A stretch of DNA of 21,333 bases, taken from IMG/VR virus record IMGVR_UViG_2684622617_000023; one strand, given 5' to 3'. The stretch is from a virus. Its lineage: Duplodnaviria > Heunggongvirae > Uroviricota > Caudoviricetes. The notes below the pieces were generated by a model, which searched no databases, was not told the origin of the DNA, and saw only the letters and a list, made by a program, of their open reading frames with translations. The translations under genes were made by a program, and so were the position numbers. Shown piece after piece: positions 3,926-19,781 of the stretch (positions are counted from its first letter, which is position 1; every line of letters starts with the position of its first letter).

Positions 3926-4236
3926 GTGCGGTTGCGTTGAAGTCTCCTAGCCAAAGAGTAGCGGTGACCACTCCCCGCCGATAATCTTAGTTGTTTAATT
4001 TCGTAAGCTAACTAGGCTAAAAGCTCTCTGTTGTCTGCCTGTTGTACAATTAACAAAATGAACAACGAACTAGATATACCAACGCCAGAATGGTGCAACA
4101 AATCCCAAACAACACAGCAATGCAACAATAACATATGTTATTTTCCTCTCACGGGATTCAGTCCTGAATTCTCATAAAGCTAATCTTTTTTTAAAAACAT
4201 ACTGTTAGATCACATGCACTTTCTTTCTTAACATCG

Positions 4237-4264
4237 TTGACTTCGCATGCGAAGCGTTTAAAAT
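4237..4264 (+). promoter_or_regulatory. Candidate sigma70 promoter of the GHKL operon with an embedded 14-bp perfect palindrome (possible operator)
   Basis: TTGACT (4237-4242), 16-nt spacer, TAAAAT (4259-4264), about 50 nt upstream of ATG 4317. CTTCGCATGCGAAG (4241-4254) is a perfect palindrome spanning the -35/spacer. Confidence 0.45.
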
Positions 4265-4316
4265 CAACAATTTGCACTTAAGGTATTTATTTTCCCAAAC
4301 ACATAGAGAGTAAATT

Positions 4317-5708
4317 ATGACTGAGAACACGACTCCAACAGCAGACTTTAGTCCTAGTAAAAGATTTTTTGTAAGTATGCTAACTCGAGATATCGACTTA
4401 AACGATGCCATACTTGATCTGCTTGATAACTGCGTCGATGGGGCTTTACGTACAATAAAAGACACAAAAAAAACTTCAAAACCATATGAAGGATTTTATG
4501 CGAAACTTACGATTAATAAAGATGTCTTTATTATAGAAGACAATTGCGGAGGTATCCCTAAAAGCTTCCGAGAATATGCTTTTAAAATGGGACGACCCCA
4601 TCAAAAAGAAGAAGAAAATGAAGGCACCGTTGGCGTCTATGGTATTGGTATGAAAAGAGCCATTTTTAAAATGGGTAGAGATTGCTCAATACAATCGAAT
4701 AATCCCGATGGCGCATTCACTGTAGATATAACACCTGATTGGATCGATGGTGATGGTTGGAAAATACCGATGCACGAGAGTGACTATGATAACAAAAATC
4801 CAACAGGCACAACTATAGAGATAAAAAAACTCCATTCTAATGTGGCACAAAAATTTAATGAGAGCACATATCTTACTGATCTCTTTTTACAGATAAAACA
4901 CTCATTGTCATTTATTATTCAAAAAGGATTTAAAATAGAATTAAATGGAGTTGTTGTTGAACATAATCCGATTAACATCATAACTGATCATTCTAAAATA
5001 GAACCATACATATATAAAGCTAAAATAGACGATGTTGATATCGATTTAGTTGTTGGCTTCTATAAAAATTTAGAAGATGACAATGATGATGTTTTAGAAA
5101 AAAGGAGTTCTGATGATGCTGGATGGACTGTCATTTGCAATGACCGCGTTGTTCTATATTGTGATAAGACACATCTCACAGGTTGGGGCTTTGCTAATGT
5201 ACCAAGGTTTCATACCCAATTTATAGCAATTTCTGGGGTTGTTCGCTTTACCAGTAAAAACCCAGAAAAATTACCAATAACAACAACGAAACGAGGTGTC
5301 GATCTTAGTTCTACATTGTACAATGATGTACGAAATAAAATGATTGAAGGGATGATGCATTTTATTCGATTCACCAATCAGTGGAAAGGTGAGCATCTTG
5401 AAGAAGGGAAAAAATTACTTAAGTCAGCTCAGTCACATGAAGCTCAATCTTTATTTGAAATTACCCCACAATCAACTCCAGAAGATAAAAAAAATAACTG
5501 GTCCAACCCTAATAGAAACAAAAATGAGTGGCGATATACACCTAAGCTGCCTACCCCAGTAAAAAAAAGCTCTACTGTACGAATAATCTTCACCAGAGAG
5601 AAAGAAGATGTTAAAATTTTATCTAAATATTTCTTTGGACATGAAGATGCTAGCGCTTCTGATGTGGGGATGCAATGCTTTGATACGGTGATTGAAGAGG
5701 TGAAGTGA
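4317..5708 (+). CDS. GHKL (Bergerat-fold, MutL/MORC/Hsp90-like) ATPase, 463 aa
   Basis: N-box LDLLDNCVDGA (Asn38 codon at 4428-4430), G1 box IEDNCGGIP, G2 box GTVGVYGIGMKRA, in canonical order near the N-terminus. AGAGAG Shine-Dalgarno 6 nt before the ATG. Gene looks strongly AT-rich compared with flanking phage genes. Confidence 0.8.
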   Translation: MTENTTPTADFSPSKRFFVSMLTRDIDLNDAILDLLDNCVDGALRTIKDTKKTSKPYEGFYAKLTINKDVFIIEDNCGGIPKSFREYAFKMGRPHQKEEENEGTVGVYGIGMKRAIFKMGRDCSIQSNNPDGAFTVDITPDWIDGDGWKIPMHESDYDNKNPTGTTIEIKKLHSNVAQKFNESTYLTDLFLQIKHSLSFIIQKGFKIELNGVVVEHNPINIITDHSKIEPYIYKAKIDDVDIDLVVGFYKNLEDDNDDVLEKRSSDDAGWTVICNDRVVLYCDKTHLTGWGFANVPRFHTQFIAISGVVRFTSKNPEKLPITTTKRGVDLSSTLYNDVRNKMIEGMMHFIRFTNQWKGEHLEEGKKLLKSAQSHEAQSLFEITPQSTPEDKKNNWSNPNRNKNEWRYTPKLPTPVKKSSTVRIIFTREKEDVKILSKYFFGHEDASASDVGMQCFDTVIEEVK

Positions 5709-6697
5709 TGTCTGGACAATACATTCCCTATCACTTAAGGCATAATAAGTCTATTGATAGAGAGATTTTTCTCGAAAGCCTAAACCTCTTAAGCAAAAGA
5801 CTAAATATTCAAGAATATACATATATAGGTTTTGGTGGTCCGATGCTTGAAGATTTTAGAATCATGCATAATCGTATCGCTCTTTCTGATATGATTTCTC
5901 TCGAAGAACAAGAGTCTACTCACATCAGACAAAAATATAATTTGCCTTATAATTGTATTGATTGTAAGCTAATATCAGCTCATGACTTTATTCTTGATTA
6001 TAGTTTTTCTAAACCATCAATAACATGGTTAGACTATGCCTCCCCGAAAAAAATACAAACGGATCTAGATGATATACACTTACTAAGTACTAAAGTAAGC
6101 TCTTTTGATATTTTGAAGGTCACCTTCCCCATAAATCCTAGTTCTTATTACCAACGTAGAGTTGGAGAAAGTTTAGATATTTTTAAAGAAGCTTTTATTA
6201 ATTCATTAAAATCATTGCTTGGGAAAAAGTATCTTGATTTTAATCTTCAGATATCAAATGCAGATCTTTCAGATCGTAAGATTAAAGCTCTTTTAATACG
6301 AATTATTACAAACGCTTTTAGATCAGCAATAGAACGTGGTCTTTCAGGACGTAAGGATAAGATTCAGTATTACCCATTATCCTTAAATCAATATAATGAT
6401 GGCAGTCATACCATGTTGACAATATCAGGTTTTTTCTCCTCAGAACAAGAATATATAGAGTTATCTAAGGCATGCGACCTTTCTAACTGGCAATTTTATT
6501 CAACAAATTGGGAAGACGTGCAAGAAATAGCAATACCAACACTAACAATTAAAGAAAAGATAAATTTAGATAGTAAACTGCCTGATAAAGAAGCATATCA
6601 GGCAGCCGCTGAAGAGTTCTCTTTAAACGAAAATGAACGGGATAACTATTATAAATACTATAGGTTATACCCTAACTTCCAAAGAATTATGGTTTAA
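5708..6697 (+). CDS. Uncharacterised partner protein of the GHKL ATPase, 329 aa
   Basis: ATG 5708 overlaps the upstream TGA (TGATG) with a GAGG Shine-Dalgarno about 9 nt upstream; the track's start at 5705 is a GTG one codon earlier. No catalytic motif recognisable by eye. The 3' end overlaps the convergent methyltransferase gene by 33 bp. Confidence 0.7.
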   Translation: MSGQYIPYHLRHNKSIDREIFLESLNLLSKRLNIQEYTYIGFGGPMLEDFRIMHNRIALSDMISLEEQESTHIRQKYNLPYNCIDCKLISAHDFILDYSFSKPSITWLDYASPKKIQTDLDDIHLLSTKVSSFDILKVTFPINPSSYYQRRVGESLDIFKEAFINSLKSLLGKKYLDFNLQISNADLSDRKIKALLIRIITNAFRSAIERGLSGRKDKIQYYPLSLNQYNDGSHTMLTISGFFSSEQEYIELSKACDLSNWQFYSTNWEDVQEIAIPTLTIKEKINLDSKLPDKEAYQAAAEEFSLNENERDNYYKYYRLYPNFQRIMV

Positions 6698-7816
6698 ATA
6701 TTCGGGCTGTACTCTTTTATTTAATAAATTGTACAGCCCCTTTAATATATATTCAGCAACTATTGGTGACACGCTATTTCCTATTTGTCTGAAACTATGC
6801 CATTTAGTTACATGAAAGCGAAACCAATCAGGGAAGCCTTGTAATCTAGCAGCTTCTCTTGGTGTAATCACTCTTGGATGATAAGGGTGGATCGGCCTGA
6901 CGGCTTGAAAGCTTCCTTTATCTCTAGCGGTTCCCGCCCTTAAAGTCGGGCAAAAACCATTTGGATCTAATCTTGTAGATCTTGAAATTTTATCAGTTTC
7001 CCCAAAAGATAAGGAAGCATAACGCTCTTGGACGATTTTGCTATGTAATGTTCCGGTACATCCAGATATGATATTATTTTTTAACTTAGCGATCGATTCT
7101 GTATCACCAACATTCCGAGGGATCTGCCCCCATAATTTTTCATAAAATCCCCCTTTTCGATCTTTTTTAATTGTTCGCCAACTCTCAGAGTCTGATTGCC
7201 AATTGGCATCGATAATATCTGGTAATCCATACAAAGCATCTTTTACAGTAACCGGATCAATCATTTTAGGCATAAATACTTCATCTGAAATATCAAGCTT
7301 CAATGATTTTTTTACACCGATAAAAAAATATCTAGTTCGAATAGTTGGAGCACCATAATCAGATGCTTTTACCTTGATGGGATCAAGAATATCATAATCA
7401 CCGCTAACCAAATTAAATGCTTTATTTCTAATGCCAGAATATTTCTCTTGCATAATACCTGGAACATTTTCTGCCAAAAAGAATAATGGCTGTAATTCTG
7501 ATACTAAACGGTAGAAATGCATGTAAAGCTGATTCCTGCTATCATCAGGATTCCCCTTGCCTATTGAACTAAATCCTTGGCACGGAGGACCGCCAATAAT
7601 ACCATCTATGGGCATATCGTTTTTAAAAAAACCCTTAATTATTTCTGCATTTAGTAAAGAAACATCTTCTTGGACGTGCAAACTTCTTGGAAAATTAATT
7701 GCGTGAGTATTAATAGCATGTTGATCAATTTCAACTGCCATTTTAACATCAAATCCAGCACGTGCAGCACCAAGACTTAGACCTCCAACGCCAGAAAACA
7801 AATCTATTACATTCAT
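6665..7816 (-). CDS. DNA (cytosine-5)-methyltransferase, 383 aa
   Basis: C5-MTase motifs in order: motif I FSGVGG, motif IV GPPCQGFS (catalytic Cys), motif VI ENV, motif VIII-like RTRYFFIG, C-terminal motif X GNSVSPIVAEY. AT-rich. Target specificity cannot be read from sequence. Confidence 0.85.
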   Translation of the reverse strand: MNVIDLFSGVGGLSLGAARAGFDVKMAVEIDQHAINTHAINFPRSLHVQEDVSLLNAEIIKGFFKNDMPIDGIIGGPPCQGFSSIGKGNPDDSRNQLYMHFYRLVSELQPLFFLAENVPGIMQEKYSGIRNKAFNLVSGDYDILDPIKVKASDYGAPTIRTRYFFIGVKKSLKLDISDEVFMPKMIDPVTVKDALYGLPDIIDANWQSDSESWRTIKKDRKGGFYEKLWGQIPRNVGDTESIAKLKNNIISGCTGTLHSKIVQERYASLSFGETDKISRSTRLDPNGFCPTLRAGTARDKGSFQAVRPIHPYHPRVITPREAARLQGFPDWFRFHVTKWHSFRQIGNSVSPIVAEYILKGLYNLLNKRVQPEYLNHNSLEVRV

Positions 7817-7848
7817 ATAGTTGCAACGTCTCTTATTAGTTTCTATGT

Positions 7849-7857
7849 ATTATAACA
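7849..7857 (-). promoter_or_regulatory. Extended -10 promoter element (TGnTATAAT) upstream of the methyltransferase gene
   Basis: - strand reads TGTTATAAT with the -10 hexamer at 7854..7849, about 33 nt upstream of ATG 7816; no convincing -35. Confidence 0.35.
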
Positions 7858-8078
7858 CAACTGTTCTTGATGTTTTAACCCCATAAGATAACCTCATAAA
7901 GGCTATCCCTTGAAAATACCGGATCGCATAAATTTAATCTTTCAAAACTACTTGTCTATTAATCGAGCAATTTAAGGTTGTTTTAGTCATGTCGATACCG
8001 ACATAGTTAACTAAACCCATTTCATCGTCCAACAAATGGGGGTAATACACTTTGATTTATAGTCGGGTGGGTTTTTCT

Positions 8079-15947: not shown

Positions 15948-18548
15948 ATGAGCACAAAACCACTCTTCCTGTTACGGAAAGCGAAAAAATCATCCGGTGA
16001 ACCTGACGTCGTCCTGTGGGCAAGCAACGATTTTGAATCGACCTGTGCCACTCTGGACTACCTGATCGTTAAGTCAGGTAAAAAACTGAGCAGCTATTTT
16101 AAAGCTGTTGCCACGAATTTTCCTGTCGTTAATGACCTGCCCGCTGAAGGTGAGATCGATTTTACCTGGAGTGAACGCTATCAACTCAGCAAAGACTCCA
16201 TGACATGGGAACTAAAACCGGGAGCAGCACCAGACAACGCTCACTATCAAGGCAATACCAACGTCAACGGCGAAGACATGACTGAGATTGAGGAGAATAT
16301 GCTACTCCCAATTTCTGGCCAGGAACTGCCCATTCGTTGGCTTGCTCAACACGGCAGCGAAAAACCGGTAACGCACGTTTCACGCGACGGACTCCAGGCA
16401 TTACACATTGCTCGGGCTGAAGAACTACCGGCTGTTACTGCCCTGGCTGTTTCCCACAAAACCAGCCTGCTCGACCCGCTGGAAATTCGCGAACTCCACA
16501 AACTGGTTCGTGACACTGACAAAGTTTTCCCTAATCCTGGTAATTCAAACCTGGGACTGATAACTGCTTTTTTCGAAGCATACCTGAACGCTGACTACAC
16601 CGATCGAGGACTGCTGACAAAAGAGTGGATGAAGGGTAATCGTGTTTCACACATCACTCGCACGGCTTCCGGTGCTAATGCTGGCGGCGGAAACCTCACC
16701 GATCGCGGCGAAGGTTTCGTACACGATCTGACGTCACTGGCGCGCGACGTAGCCACTGGCGTACTGGCCCGTTCAATGGATCTGGACATCTATAACCTTC
16801 ATCCGGCACACGCTAAACGCATTGAGGAAATTATCGCTGAAAATAAACCGCCCTTTTCTGTTTTCCGCGACAAATTCATCACCATGCCTGGCGGGCTGGA
16901 TTATTCCCGCGCCATCGTGGTTGCGTCCGTAAAAGAAGCACCAATTGGGATCGAGGTCATCCCCGCGCACGTCACTGAATATCTGAACAAAGTACTGACT
17001 GAAACCGATCATGCCAACCCTGATCCGGAAATCGTGGATATTGCCTGCGGTCGCTCCTCTGCCCCGATGCCGCAGCGAGTAACAGAAGAAGGAAAACAGG
17101 ATGATGAAGAAAAACCGCAACCATCTGGAACAACGGCAGTTGAACAGGGAGAGGCTGAAACAATGGAACCGGACGCAACTGAACATCATCAGGACACGCA
17201 GCCGCTGGATGCTCAGTCACAGGTAAATTCTGTTGATGCGAAATATCAGGAACTGCGGGCAGAACTCCATGAAGCCCGGAAAAACATTCCATCAAAAAAT
17301 CCTGTCGATGCCGATAAATTGCTTGCTGCATCACGTGGTGAATTTGTTGACGGAATTAGCGACCCGAACGATCCGAAATGGGTAAAGGGGATCCAGACTC
17401 GCGATTGTGTGTACCAGAACCAGCCAGAAACGGAAAAAACCAGCCCGGATATGAATCAACCTGAGCCAGTAGTGCAACAGGAACCGGAAATAGCCTGCAA
17501 TGCCTGCGGCCAGACTGGCGGGGATAACTGCCCTGACTGTGGTGCGGTGATGGGCGACGCAACATACCAGGAAACATTCGATGAAGAGAGTCAGGTTGAA
17601 GCTAAGGAAAATGATCCGGAGGAAATGGAAGGCGCTGAACATCCGCACAATGAGAATGCTGGCAGCGATCCGCATCGCGATTGCAGTGATGAAACTGGCG
17701 AAGTCGCAGATCCCGTAATCGTAGAAGACATAGAGCCAGGTATTTATTACGGAATTTCGAATGAGAATTACCACGCGGGTCCCGGTGTCAGTAAGTCTCA
17801 GCTCGATGACATTGCTGATACTCCGGCACTGTATTTGTGGCGTAAAAATGCCCCCGTGGACACCACAAAGACAAAAACGCTCGATTTAGGAACCGCTTTC
17901 CACTGCCGGGTACTTGAGCCGGAAGAATTCAGTAACCGCTTTATCGTAGCACCTGAATTTAACCGCCGGACAAACTCCGGAAAAGAAGAAGAGAAAGCGT
18001 TTCTGAGGGAATGCGCAAGCACAGGAAAAACGGTTATCACTGCCGAAGAAGGCCGGAAAATTGAACTCATGTATCAGAGCGTTATGGCTTTGCCGCTGGG
18101 GCAATGGCTTGTTGAAAGCGCCGGACACGCTGAATCATCAATTTACTGGGAAGATCCTGAAACAGCAATTTTGTGTCGGTGCCGTCCGGACAAAATTATC
18201 CCTGAATTTCACTGGATCATGGACGTGAAAACTACGGCGGATATTCAACGATTCAAAACCGCTTATTACGACTACCGCTATCACGTTCAGGATGCATTCT
18301 ACAGTGACGGTTATGAAGCACAGTTTGGAGTGCAGCCAACTTTCGTTTTTCTGGTTGCCAGCACAACTATTGAATGCGGACGTTATCCGGTTGAAATTTT
18401 CATGATGGGCGAAGAAGCAAAACTGGCAGGTCAGCTGGAATATCACCGCAATCTGCGAACCCTGGCTGACTGCCTCAATACCGATGAATGGCCAGCTATT
18501 AAGACGTTATCACTGCCCCGCTGGGCTAAGGAATATGCAAATGACTAA
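15948..18548 (+). CDS. recE: Exodeoxyribonuclease VIII (RecE), full length 866 aa
   Basis: Single uninterrupted 866-aa ORF with a GAGG Shine-Dalgarno; C-terminal nuclease region and Cys-cluster [16 protein letters not shown]; length matches Rac RecE. Confidence 0.95.
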
Positions 18549-19350
18549 GCAACCACCAATCGCAAAAGCCGATCTGCAAAAAACTCAGGGAAACCGTGCA
18601 CCAGCAGCAATTAAAAATAACGACGTGATTAGTTTTATTAACCAGCCATCAATGAAAGAGCAACTGGCAGCAGCTCTTCCACGCCATATGACGGCTGAAC
18701 GTATGATCCGTATCGCCACCACAGAAATTCGTAAAGTTCCGGCGTTAGGAAACTGTGACACTATGAGTTTTGTCAGTGCAATCGTACAGTGTTCACAGCT
18801 CGGACTTGAGCCCGGTAGCGCCCTCGGTCATGCATATTTACTGCCTTTTGGTAATAAAAACGAAAAGAGCGGTAAAAAAAACGTTCAGCTAATCATTGGC
18901 TATCGAGGCATGATTGATCTGGCTCGCCGTTCAGGTCAAATCGCCAGCTTGTCAGCCCGTGTTGTCCGTGAAGGTGACGAGTTTAATTTCGAATTTGGCC
19001 TTGATGAAAAGTTAATACACCGCCCAGGAGAAAACGAAGATGCCCCTGTTACCCACGTCTATGCTGTCGCAAGACTGAAAGACGGAGGTACTCAGTTTGA
19101 AGTTATGACGCGCAAACAGATTGAGCTGGTGCGCAGCCAGAGTAAAGCTGGTAATAACGGGCCGTGGGTAACTCACTGGGAAGAAATGGCAAAGAAAACG
19201 GCTATTCGTCGCCTGTTCAAATATCTGCCCGTATCAATTGAGATCCAGCGTGCAGTATCAATGGATGAAAAGGAACCACTGACAATCGATCCTGCAGATT
19301 CCTCTGTATTAACCGGGGAATACAGTGTAATCGATAATTCAGAGGAATAA
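18541..19350 (+). CDS. recT: RecT single-strand annealing protein, 269 aa
   Basis: Track ORF trimmed to [14 protein letters not shown]...; ATG overlaps the 3' end of recE by 8 nt. Confidence 0.95.
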
Positions 19351-19405: not shown

Positions 19406-19600
19406 ATGAGATATGACAATGTTAAACCATGTCCATTTTGTGGTTGTCCATCAGTAACGGTGAAAGCCATTTCAGGATATTACCGAGCGAAGTGTAACGG
19501 ATGCGAATCCCGAACCGGTTATGGTGGAAGTGAAAAAGAAGCACTCGAACGATGAAATAAACGAACCACTGGAAATAATAATGGAGGTGTTCATGTATAA
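19406..19600 (+). pseudogene. ralR: ralR (restriction-alleviation Lar / type I toxin) with an in-frame TGA at codon 50
   Basis: From ATG 19406 the frame reads MRYDNVKPCPFCGCPSVTVKAISGYYRAKCNGCESRTGYGGSEKEALER, then TGA at 19553-19555, then NKRTTGNNNGGVHV to TAA 19598-19600. 49 + 1 + 14 = 64 codons, the length I recall for K-12 RalR, where this codon is TGG (Trp). Confidence 0.6.
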
Positions 19601-19781
19601 AATTACCGCCACTATTGAAAAGGAAGGTGGCACTCCTACTAACTGGACAAGATATTCAAAATCTAAACTAACGAAATCAGAATGCGAAAAAATGCTCTCA
19701 GGTAAAAAAGAAGCAGGCGTTTCCAGAGAGCAGAAAGTAAAACTGATAAATTTTAATTGCGAGAAACTTCAGTCCTCGTGA
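19593..19781 (+). CDS. ydaC: Small Rac protein, 62 aa
   Basis: ATG 19593 with a GGAGG Shine-Dalgarno 6 nt upstream (MYKITATIEKEGGTPTNW...); the longer track ORF starting 19521 lacks a ribosome-binding site. Confidence 0.65.
   Translation: MYKITATIEKEGGTPTNWTRYSKSKLTKSECEKMLSGKKEAGVSREQKVKLINFNCEKLQSS

Follow-up and report, generated by a model that had tools for sequence, protein, structure and literature searches.

A MORC-like ATPase, its coupled methyltransferase-fold partner and a C5 cytosine methylase form a probable nuclease-free, restriction-modification-like module of bacteria and temperate phages

The DNA analyzed here (the window) is a stretch of 21,333 nucleotides (nt), IMG/VR virus record IMGVR_UViG_2684622617_000023, which represents a Rac-like lambdoid prophage of Escherichia coli O157:H7 (including strain EDL933). 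A cassette of three genes within it encodes a MORC-like ATPase (463 residues, WP_000138556.1; positions 4317 to 5708, plus strand), a partner protein of 329 residues (WP_000016656.1; 5708 to 6697, plus strand) and a C5 cytosine DNA methyltransferase, hereafter the C5 methylase (383 residues, WP_001100703.1; 6665 to 7816, minus strand). With moderate confidence, we read these genes as a mobile, nuclease-free module that resembles restriction-modification (R-M) systems, in which the partner is obligately associated with the ATPase and the two are expressed from one coupled operon. The evidence comes from the family and predicted fold of the partner, from the architecture of the ATPase and from the conservation of the three-gene arrangement across genomes and viral contigs.

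The initial annotation of this DNA had described the partner as a protein with no recognizable family that might constitute a new domain. Remote-homology and fold searches overturned this description. The protein matches the Pfam family PF20553 (Methyltransf_35, “putative O-methyltransferase”) from end to end, with residues 1 to 328 aligned to profile positions 1 to 308 of 309 (E = 2e-89; 300.4 bits against a cut-off of 27), and its homologues bear the same precomputed PF20553 match. RefSeq annotates it at identical coordinates under the name O-methyltransferase. Its profile is matched by 2122 half-identity cluster representatives; the best 150 of these are all 211 to 381 residues long, mostly 320 to 345, and single-domain, with no fusions to other domains among them, and by length and architecture the partner is a full member of this family. 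A match was also obtained to PHROG 19983, which is annotated as of unknown function. Neither the partner nor the ATPase matched PADLOC (PADLOC-DB v2.0.0) or any NCBIfam model, where MzaB at E = 0.037 fell far short of its cut-off, and comparison of the partner with PDB chains, either as a single sequence or as a profile, returned chance-level matches only.

An AlphaFold2 model of the partner, built on 34 homologues, was obtained with a predicted local distance difference test (pLDDT) score of 90.3 and a predicted template modeling (pTM) score of 0.88. The model shows a seven-stranded class I Rossmann methyltransferase fold with strands 1 to 7 in the canonical order and a beta6-beta7 hairpin, to which are added an N-terminal helix, a variable helical insert at about residues 140 to 215 and, at the C terminus, some 85 residues (246 to 329) that are largely helical. 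Foldseek retrieved hundreds of methyltransferases dependent on S-adenosylmethionine (SAM), with a probability of 1.0 to many class I members. The nearest solved structures were nucleic-acid base methyltransferases (RsmD-like and Trm1), which are N- and C-methyltransferases of RNA bases, and the list also held many natural-product methyltransferases.

Conservation was read from an alignment of 79 family members, which are 25 to 36% identical to the window protein. It reaches 95% or more at Y8, H9, L10, R11, N13, K14, R18, Y39, G43, D49, E66, R74, W107, D109, T139, Y229, D231, M236, P277, E283 and P322. The positions of the SAM motifs were placed from the secondary structure of the model and the canonical class I topology, not by residue-level superposition. 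Placed in this way, the glycine-rich loop G41-F-G-G-P45 (5828 to 5842, plus strand) comes past strand 1 at the SAM-binding position of motif I, between a model strand at 38 to 42 and a helix at 45 to 57, with G43 at least 95% and G41 and G44 80 to 95% conserved. E66 (5903 to 5905, plus strand; at least 95% conserved) ends strand 2 at the motif II position, which binds the SAM ribose hydroxyls, and W107-L-D109-Y110 (6026 to 6037, plus strand) ends strand 4 (model strand 104 to 109) at the catalytic motif IV position, where amino-methyltransferases carry DPPF or DPPY; here, W107 and D109 are at least 95% and Y110 80 to 95% conserved. The loop, E66 and D109 contradict the earlier statement, made by eye, that the protein lacks a SAM-binding signature. 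Particular to the family is an N-terminal motif, Y8-H-L-R-x-N-K14...R18 (5729 to 5761, plus strand), which is at least 95% conserved in the 79 sequences; in the model, residues 1 to 9 are of low confidence and are followed by a helix at 12 to 28.

On its sequence and its predicted structure, the partner is thus a class I SAM-dependent methyltransferase-fold protein of PF20553. It is very likely to bind SAM and likely to transfer a group from this cofactor. The “O-” in its Pfam and RefSeq name is unsupported, and “O-methyltransferase” is best taken here as a fold label and not as a function. The earlier statement that the partner carries no HNH, PD-(D/E)xK or Walker motif is consistent with the Pfam and fold searches; if the partner is an effector, it is no nuclease.

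Likeness to the base methyltransferases is claimed at the level of the fold only, because profile comparison by hhalign was not significant. Using E. coli RlmJ and RsmD sequences checked against PDB 4BLU and 2FPO, we considered and rejected both a motif at the N terminus like that of RlmJ (YRHxxHAGN, compared with YHLRxNK here) and a motif register like that of RsmD, the family profile aligning to either protein with a probability below 1%. The partner is accordingly without detectable sequence relationship to methyltransferases of the RsmD, Trm1, TrmN and RlmJ type (hhalign values being those for RsmD and RlmJ). Furthermore, whereas RsmD, Trm1, RlmJ and the N6A and N4C DNA methylases have (D/N/S)-P-P-(Y/F/W) at motif IV, the partner has W-L-D109-Y110-A-S-P (W-L-D-Y-A-x-P in the family), in which the Asp and an aromatic residue are kept and the Pro-Pro is missing. 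In contrast to RsmD, Trm1, TrmN and RlmJ, it also adds the YHLRxNK motif, the variable helical insert and the C-terminal region, and it always stands beside a GHKL ATPase.

The junction with the ATPase gene (5697 to 5710, plus strand) was read directly from the sequence. The partner ATG (5708 to 5710) has its A in common with the ATPase stop codon TGA at 5706 to 5708 (gaaGTGATGtct), a Shine-Dalgarno-like GAGGTG (5697 to 5702) lies 5 nt 5' of the ATG within the ATPase coding sequence, and the partner gene ends with TAA at 6695 to 6697. This agrees with the initial annotation, which had noted an ATG overlapping the ATPase stop (TGATG) and an open reading frame (ORF) of 329 residues at 5708 to 6697. 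A program-made ORF listing opens one codon upstream, at GTG 5705 (330 residues); ATG 5708 was taken as the start because homologues begin with M-S-G or M-S-S-G and RefSeq uses the ATG. The full-length Pfam match, the 2122 representatives and the conserved overlap with the ATPase stop argue that the partner gene is not a chance ORF.

To describe the arrangement beyond the window, we collected 80 genomic loci from one-genome-per-species contigs of many phyla. The ATPase gene lies directly upstream of the partner gene in 79 of them, the eightieth being cut by the locus end. In 58 of 78 loci, the end of the ATPase gene and the beginning of the partner gene share 4 nt; in 3 of 78 they share 1 nt, as they do in the window. 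Pairwise distances of the two proteins are strongly correlated (Mantel r = 0.81). Together, these observations bear out the earlier proposal of translational coupling to the GHKL ATPase. Absence of the partner from otherwise similar cassettes, which the initial annotation had named as an observation that would count against it, was never seen.

The ATPase is a GHKL+S5 “clamp” ATPase of the MORC/paraMORC kind. Behind its Bergerat-fold ATP-binding motifs I to IV comes a transducer of the S5 fold that contains a conserved basic residue, and the best structural matches of the ATPase are MORC3, SMCHD1 and MORC2. Its family comprises more than 5430 homologues and is highly conserved, identity being about 45% over a range that takes in Enterobacteria, Cyanobacteria, Nitrospirota and Gemmatimonadota; D34-x3-N38, D75-N-C-G-G, G-x-Y-G-I-G and T-T-T-K325-R are its invariant motifs. 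When its profile was aligned by hhalign with the N-terminal region of E. coli MutL, only the DNGCG motif aligned. Pfam and fold searches revealed no nuclease domain in the ATPase. Its last 100 or so residues make up a small conserved tail, for which no structural match was obtained.

The third protein is a C5 cytosine methylase by its match to Pfam DNA_methylase (E = 2.6e-61). It is the only one of the three proteins recognized by PADLOC, through the generic MTase_II, DruM and DrmMII models. Residues 1 to 367 match PDB 3G7U (“Cytosine-specific methyltransferase”) with E = 1.3e-254, so that one of the three module components has a solved structure; the second-best PDB match is M.HaeIII (E = 1.5e-34). 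The methylase gene is convergent with the partner gene, and their 3' ends overlap by 33 nt; residues 361 to 383 of the methylase are not conserved in homologues (identity, 0.02 to 0.09). The methylases linked to the ATPase-partner pair belong to one subfamily, and their alignment extends through the target-recognition region. Distances among them are correlated with distances among the ATPases and among the partners (r of about 0.45 to 0.47; Mantel P = 0.001), a correlation that for the partner could partly reflect shared host phylogeny. The target-recognition region and the catalytic core covary with the partner to the same extent (r = 0.45 and 0.45), and there is therefore no evidence for the partner as a specificity subunit.

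A C5 methylase gene was located within 300 nt of the pair in 57 of the 80 loci, lying upstream on the same strand in 29, downstream and convergent, as in the window, in 22, and downstream on the same strand in 6. In 10 further loci it lies within 2.4 kb, giving a total of 67 of 80. Vsr, a mismatch-repair nickase, is encoded in 26 of the 80 loci and an HNH_5 protein in 6, and nothing else was recurrent. Of 5426 complete E. coli genomes, 173 contain a match of at least 99% identity to the three-gene core (4317 to 7816), in a single copy and on the chromosome each time. They are mostly O157:H7, EDL933 among them, and O111:H8, and 172 of these 173 carriers inherit all three genes together. The exception is the O157:H7 strain F6294 (locus L092, positions 6392 to 6895), in which one deletion has taken away all of the methylase gene together with two thirds of the partner gene, at its 3' side, and has spared the ATPase. 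This is what an addictive R-M-like pair would predict, and it is anecdotal.

Two variants of the arrangement were noted among the genomic loci. In a Rhodoferax metagenome-assembled genome (L015, 5616 to 12709), one C5 methylase gene lies between two divergent ATPase-partner pairs, the second of which is much more distant from the window proteins (E = 9e-51 and 1e-12; PF20553, E = 2.4e-74). In eight loci (L018, L019, L022, L023, L027, L029, L035 and L039), a second, longer GHKL protein is encoded beside the pair, and in seven of them it directly abuts the C5 methylase. Four of these longer proteins were scanned against Pfam; they are 572 to 610 residues long, HATPase_c_3 alone was recognized, and their C-terminal half had no assignment. 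The longer protein may belong to a different methylase-linked paraMORC system.

The same three genes (the triad) were recovered from mobile elements. Among 49 IMG/VR viral contigs with the partner, the methylase is present in all 49 and the ATPase in 48, the remaining contig being cut at the locus start. In 21 of the 49, the element is a P2-like prophage with the triad between gpA and the portal gene, as also in genomic locus L090; this interval corresponds to the old/tin locus, which Rousset et al. showed to be a hotspot for anti-phage systems (PMC9122126). Another 17 of the 49 are lambdoid and carry the triad beside DUF1367, a location like the nin/Q-region slot of the window, and in a Yersinia prophage it lies, just as in the window, with Q on one side and the replication genes on the other. 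Elsewhere, the triad stands in the accessory end of PfAC20, a filamentous Pseudomonas phage, within type I R-M loci and, in Ralstonia, next to Vsr and a ScoMcrA-like gene. The defense setting that the initial annotation had considered is thus supported by the P2 old-tin hotspot, by the lambdoid and Pf prophage accessory loci and by the type I R-M islands. In prophages, the ATPase-partner operon is transcribed opposite to the neighboring phage genes, in the manner of a moron, and the C5 methylase along with them; in the window, the corresponding neighbor is the early-right operon, which shares its strand with the methylase. Separately, loci listed as “hypothetical + HATPase_c_3” in P4-satellite hotspots (WP_047615349 and WP_089563614; PMC9122126, Table S1A) may be the pair without a methylase.

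Several known systems resemble parts of this module. The paraMORC GHKL ATPases have been predicted to be R-M components together with Dcm and Vsr (Iyer, Abhiman & Aravind 2008, PMC2292703). The window ATPase is like them in its GHKL+S5 architecture and in its linkage to C5 methylases and Vsr within mobile islands; however, it could not be placed in any numbered paraMORC family, and in the published operons the ATPase is accompanied by helicases and by restriction endonuclease-fold, HNH or TIR domains, a methyltransferase-fold partner being unmentioned there. A paraMORC3 GHKL ATPase is also part of an experimentally validated anti-phage system, the type I-D Shedu protein VcSduA (PMC12137116). 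In both cases, a GHKL ATPase module is proposed to control an effector. In VcSduA, however, the effector is a fused PD-(D/E)xK nuclease (DUF4263), whereas the candidate effector here is encoded on its own and has a methyltransferase fold, a nuclease is lacking and the pair is accompanied by a cognate C5 methylase.

With type II R-M, BREX and DISARM systems, the module shares a DNA methylase tightly linked to a second activity, convergent or co-directional layouts, mobility and a place in defense islands. The methylase lies adjacent to the putative restriction component, as expected of type II R-M systems (within 300 nt in the 57 genomic loci, and in all 49 viral ones), but an endonuclease of the PD-(D/E)xK, HNH, GIY-YIG, PLD or half-pipe type was found neither in the partner nor in the ATPase. 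The signature genes of BREX and DISARM are absent from the module, which has three genes only. Another relative in design is the C5-methylase-linked, “two-component-like” HEF_HK/Response_reg_2 pair (Bellieny-Rabelo et al. 2021, PMC8011034), which likewise combines a C5 methylase, a HATPase_c_3 ATPase and a small partner in R-M-rich regions and P2 hotspots, and the domain content of which is like that of a “Kinase-methylase” locus in the supplement of PMC9122126. It differs in its proteins: HEF_HK and a second HATPase_c are present in the ATPase, and the small partner is a receiver-like domain with no methyltransferase fold. The existence of this separate pair shows that the combination of methylase and HATPase_c_3 protein recurs. 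In summary of these comparisons, the protein family is catalogued, the module of ATPase, PF20553 protein and C5 methylase is not in PADLOC, and we rate it as a paraMORC-associated R-M-like system in which the non-methylase arm has a methyltransferase fold in place of a nuclease.

How such a module might work can be outlined from its parts. The C5 methylase, the identity of which is clear, would presumably mark resident DNA. Judging by its fold, the ATPase would dimerize on ATP and clamp DNA like the ATPase modules of MORC, MutL and topoisomerase II, and it would then carry, activate or license the SAM-binding partner on nucleic acid without the C5 mark. More speculatively, the output would be a chemical modification of the invader nucleic acid or its ATP-dependent trapping or silencing; it is probably not cleavage, because neither the ATPase nor the partner has a nuclease domain. 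A fuller version, to which we give little weight, is that the MORC-like clamp, driven by ATP, might recognize DNA without the cognate 5-methylcytosine mark and direct the SAM-dependent transferase to it, which might then modify this DNA, for instance by methylating the Watson-Crick face or the backbone, or keep it silenced or compacted, infection being blocked without cleavage.

A number of observations weigh against the reading of the cassette as an R-M-like module. Neither a nuclease nor a classical restriction effector was detected in the partner or the ATPase by family and fold searches, and clustering of all ORFs of the 80 loci revealed no recurrent nuclease. Eight long loci, mostly cyanobacterial, have the pair with no C5 methylase within 7 kb, so that lethality of the pair in the absence of a linked methylase is not apparent. 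The correlation between methylase and partner distances is open to the phylogenetic explanation given above. At the level of the proteins, the SAM motifs of the partner are assigned from the topology of a model, with no significant profile comparison to RsmD or RlmJ, and the catalytic Glu position of GHKL motif I (E-x3-N) is occupied in the ATPase by an Asp (D34; window positions 4416 to 4430), as aligned by eye. This Asp is found in at least 95% of 80 ATPase family members, and ATP turnover by the ATPase may be atypical, given Asp for Glu. Finally, PADLOC has no model for the ATPase or the partner, and no experimental study or description of the ATPase-partner system was found in the full-text literature, the coverage of which leaves out most subscription journals.

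Four other explanations were weighed against the preferred one. The module might serve modification only, the partner being a second, ATP-dependent DNA (or RNA) methyltransferase that is loaded processively by the MORC-like clamp and, together with the C5 methylase, supplies prophage and host with an additional epigenetic or anti-restriction mark, attacking nothing. Such a role would suit two non-ATPase genes that both encode methyltransferase folds with their motif positions intact, the lack of a nuclease, the abundance of orphan methylases in temperate phages, the position of the window C5 methylase on the strand of the early-right operon and the existence of pairs with no linked C5 methylase. 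It fits less well with an operon transcribed moron-like against those of the phage, in hotspots that usually hold defense genes, or with the frequent Vsr and type I/IV restriction neighbors, which are those of defense islands; moreover, a purely protective mark is not obviously in need of an ATPase from a family tied to R-M and Shedu. We regard this alternative as possible, if on the unlikely side. It appears distinctly unlikely that the partner is an abortive-infection toxin or a SAM sensor, which would methylate host RNA or protein, or sense SAM, once the ATPase detects infection, with the C5 methylase an unrelated or regulatory neighbor. The pair is associated closely, and over a wide range of loci that takes in all 49 viral ones, with one specific C5 methylase subfamily. 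This indicates that the mechanism involves the methylation status of DNA. GHKL+S5 modules of the MORC type, moreover, are DNA clamps.

A role in repair has been considered as well, in which the MutL-like ATPase and the partner would assist the very-short-patch repair of T:G mismatches that arise from 5-methylcytosine deamination at the sites of the methylase. Vsr next to the triad in 26 of 80 loci would be in line with this, as would the established stimulation of Vsr by E. coli MutL (discussed in PMC2292703), and we hold it to be very improbable nonetheless. Least likely of all, and scarcely credible, is the literal sense of the label, by which the partner would be an O-methyltransferase of small molecules or secondary metabolites and have nothing to do with nucleic acids. 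The name given by Pfam and RefSeq and the many natural-product methyltransferases in the Foldseek list speak for it, but there are no biosynthetic neighbors in about 130 loci.

An R-M-like module of this kind would matter on several counts. It is widespread, with its 2122 half-identity partner clusters and thousands of ATPase homologues spread over many bacterial phyla and three unrelated types of temperate phage, and it is present both in a well-studied pathogen, E. coli O157:H7 EDL933, where it is prophage-borne, and in validated anti-phage hotspots. Defense-finder tools report the C5 methylase alone, as “incomplete R-M”; in PfAC20, for example, only the cytosine methylase of an “incomplete” R-M system was reported (PMC11878078). 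If the module is defensive, it would represent an unusual class of methylation-based immunity that uses ATP and SAM and involves no cleavage, as well as a tractable bacterial model of MORC-type ATPases that read, or act with, cytosine methylation. Should restriction without a nuclease prove true, the module would be a bacterial counterpart, and possibly an antecedent, of the eukaryotic partnership of MORC and cytosine methylation that silences invasive DNA.

In the window, the cassette occupies an AT-rich island (4001 to 8000; no strand) with a GC content of 0.32 to 0.37 in the composition profile, the 500-nt windows of the rest of the prophage lying mostly at 0.41 to 0.54, with a lowest value of 0.38. 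Its neighbors are, on one side, nin/Q-region genes of lambdoid type (DUF1367, DUF1133/antiterminator Q) and, on the other, replication-region genes (DUF977, DUF1627, DnaC-like). A consensus scan gave a sigma-70 promoter-like site 5' of the ATPase-partner operon (TTGACT-16-TAAAAT; 4237 to 4264, plus strand) and another promoter-like site 5' of the methylase gene (TTAAAA-18-TG-TATAAT; 7849 to 7878, minus strand); both are weak evidence, and the region contains no more such sites in total than expected from shuffled sequence. A repeat search located a 14-nt inverted repeat, GGGCTGTACTCTTT/AAATTGTACAGCCC, at 6704 to 6739 (no strand), starting 7 nt past the partner stop and falling within the last 20 or so codons of the methylase ORF (6665 to 6730), in the non-conserved C-terminal tail. 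It was not called in a terminator scan; it may be a terminator between the convergent genes, through which the methylase ORF would read.

The remainder of the window carries RecE/RecT (15948 to 19350), an integrase (20098 to the window end), SieB, YdaT, cI/Cro-like repressors, the DnaC-like loader, DUF1627/DUF977, and DUF1367 with the Q-type antiterminator. Just past the methylase promoter, about 8069 to 8296, the sequence is 90 to 95% identical to a Shiga toxin (Stx) phage segment that is annotated in the 933W record as SokW antisense RNA and a small hypothetical gene (hok/sok-like), the window stretch having no Rfam match at the gathering threshold. The RalA antitoxin small RNA (Rfam RF02694, 225 bits) was found at 19599 to 19777 on the minus strand, antisense to an 86-residue DUF1187 ORF at 19521 to 19781 on the plus strand; together, they make up RalR/RalA, a type I toxin-antitoxin pair characteristic of the rac prophage. 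The window prophage also bears two tRNA genes on the minus strand, downstream of the Q antiterminator region, a tRNA-Arg (TCT) at 825 to 901 and a CAT-anticodon tRNA at 1002 to 1077 that is assigned to Met by ARAGORN and to Ile in RefSeq.

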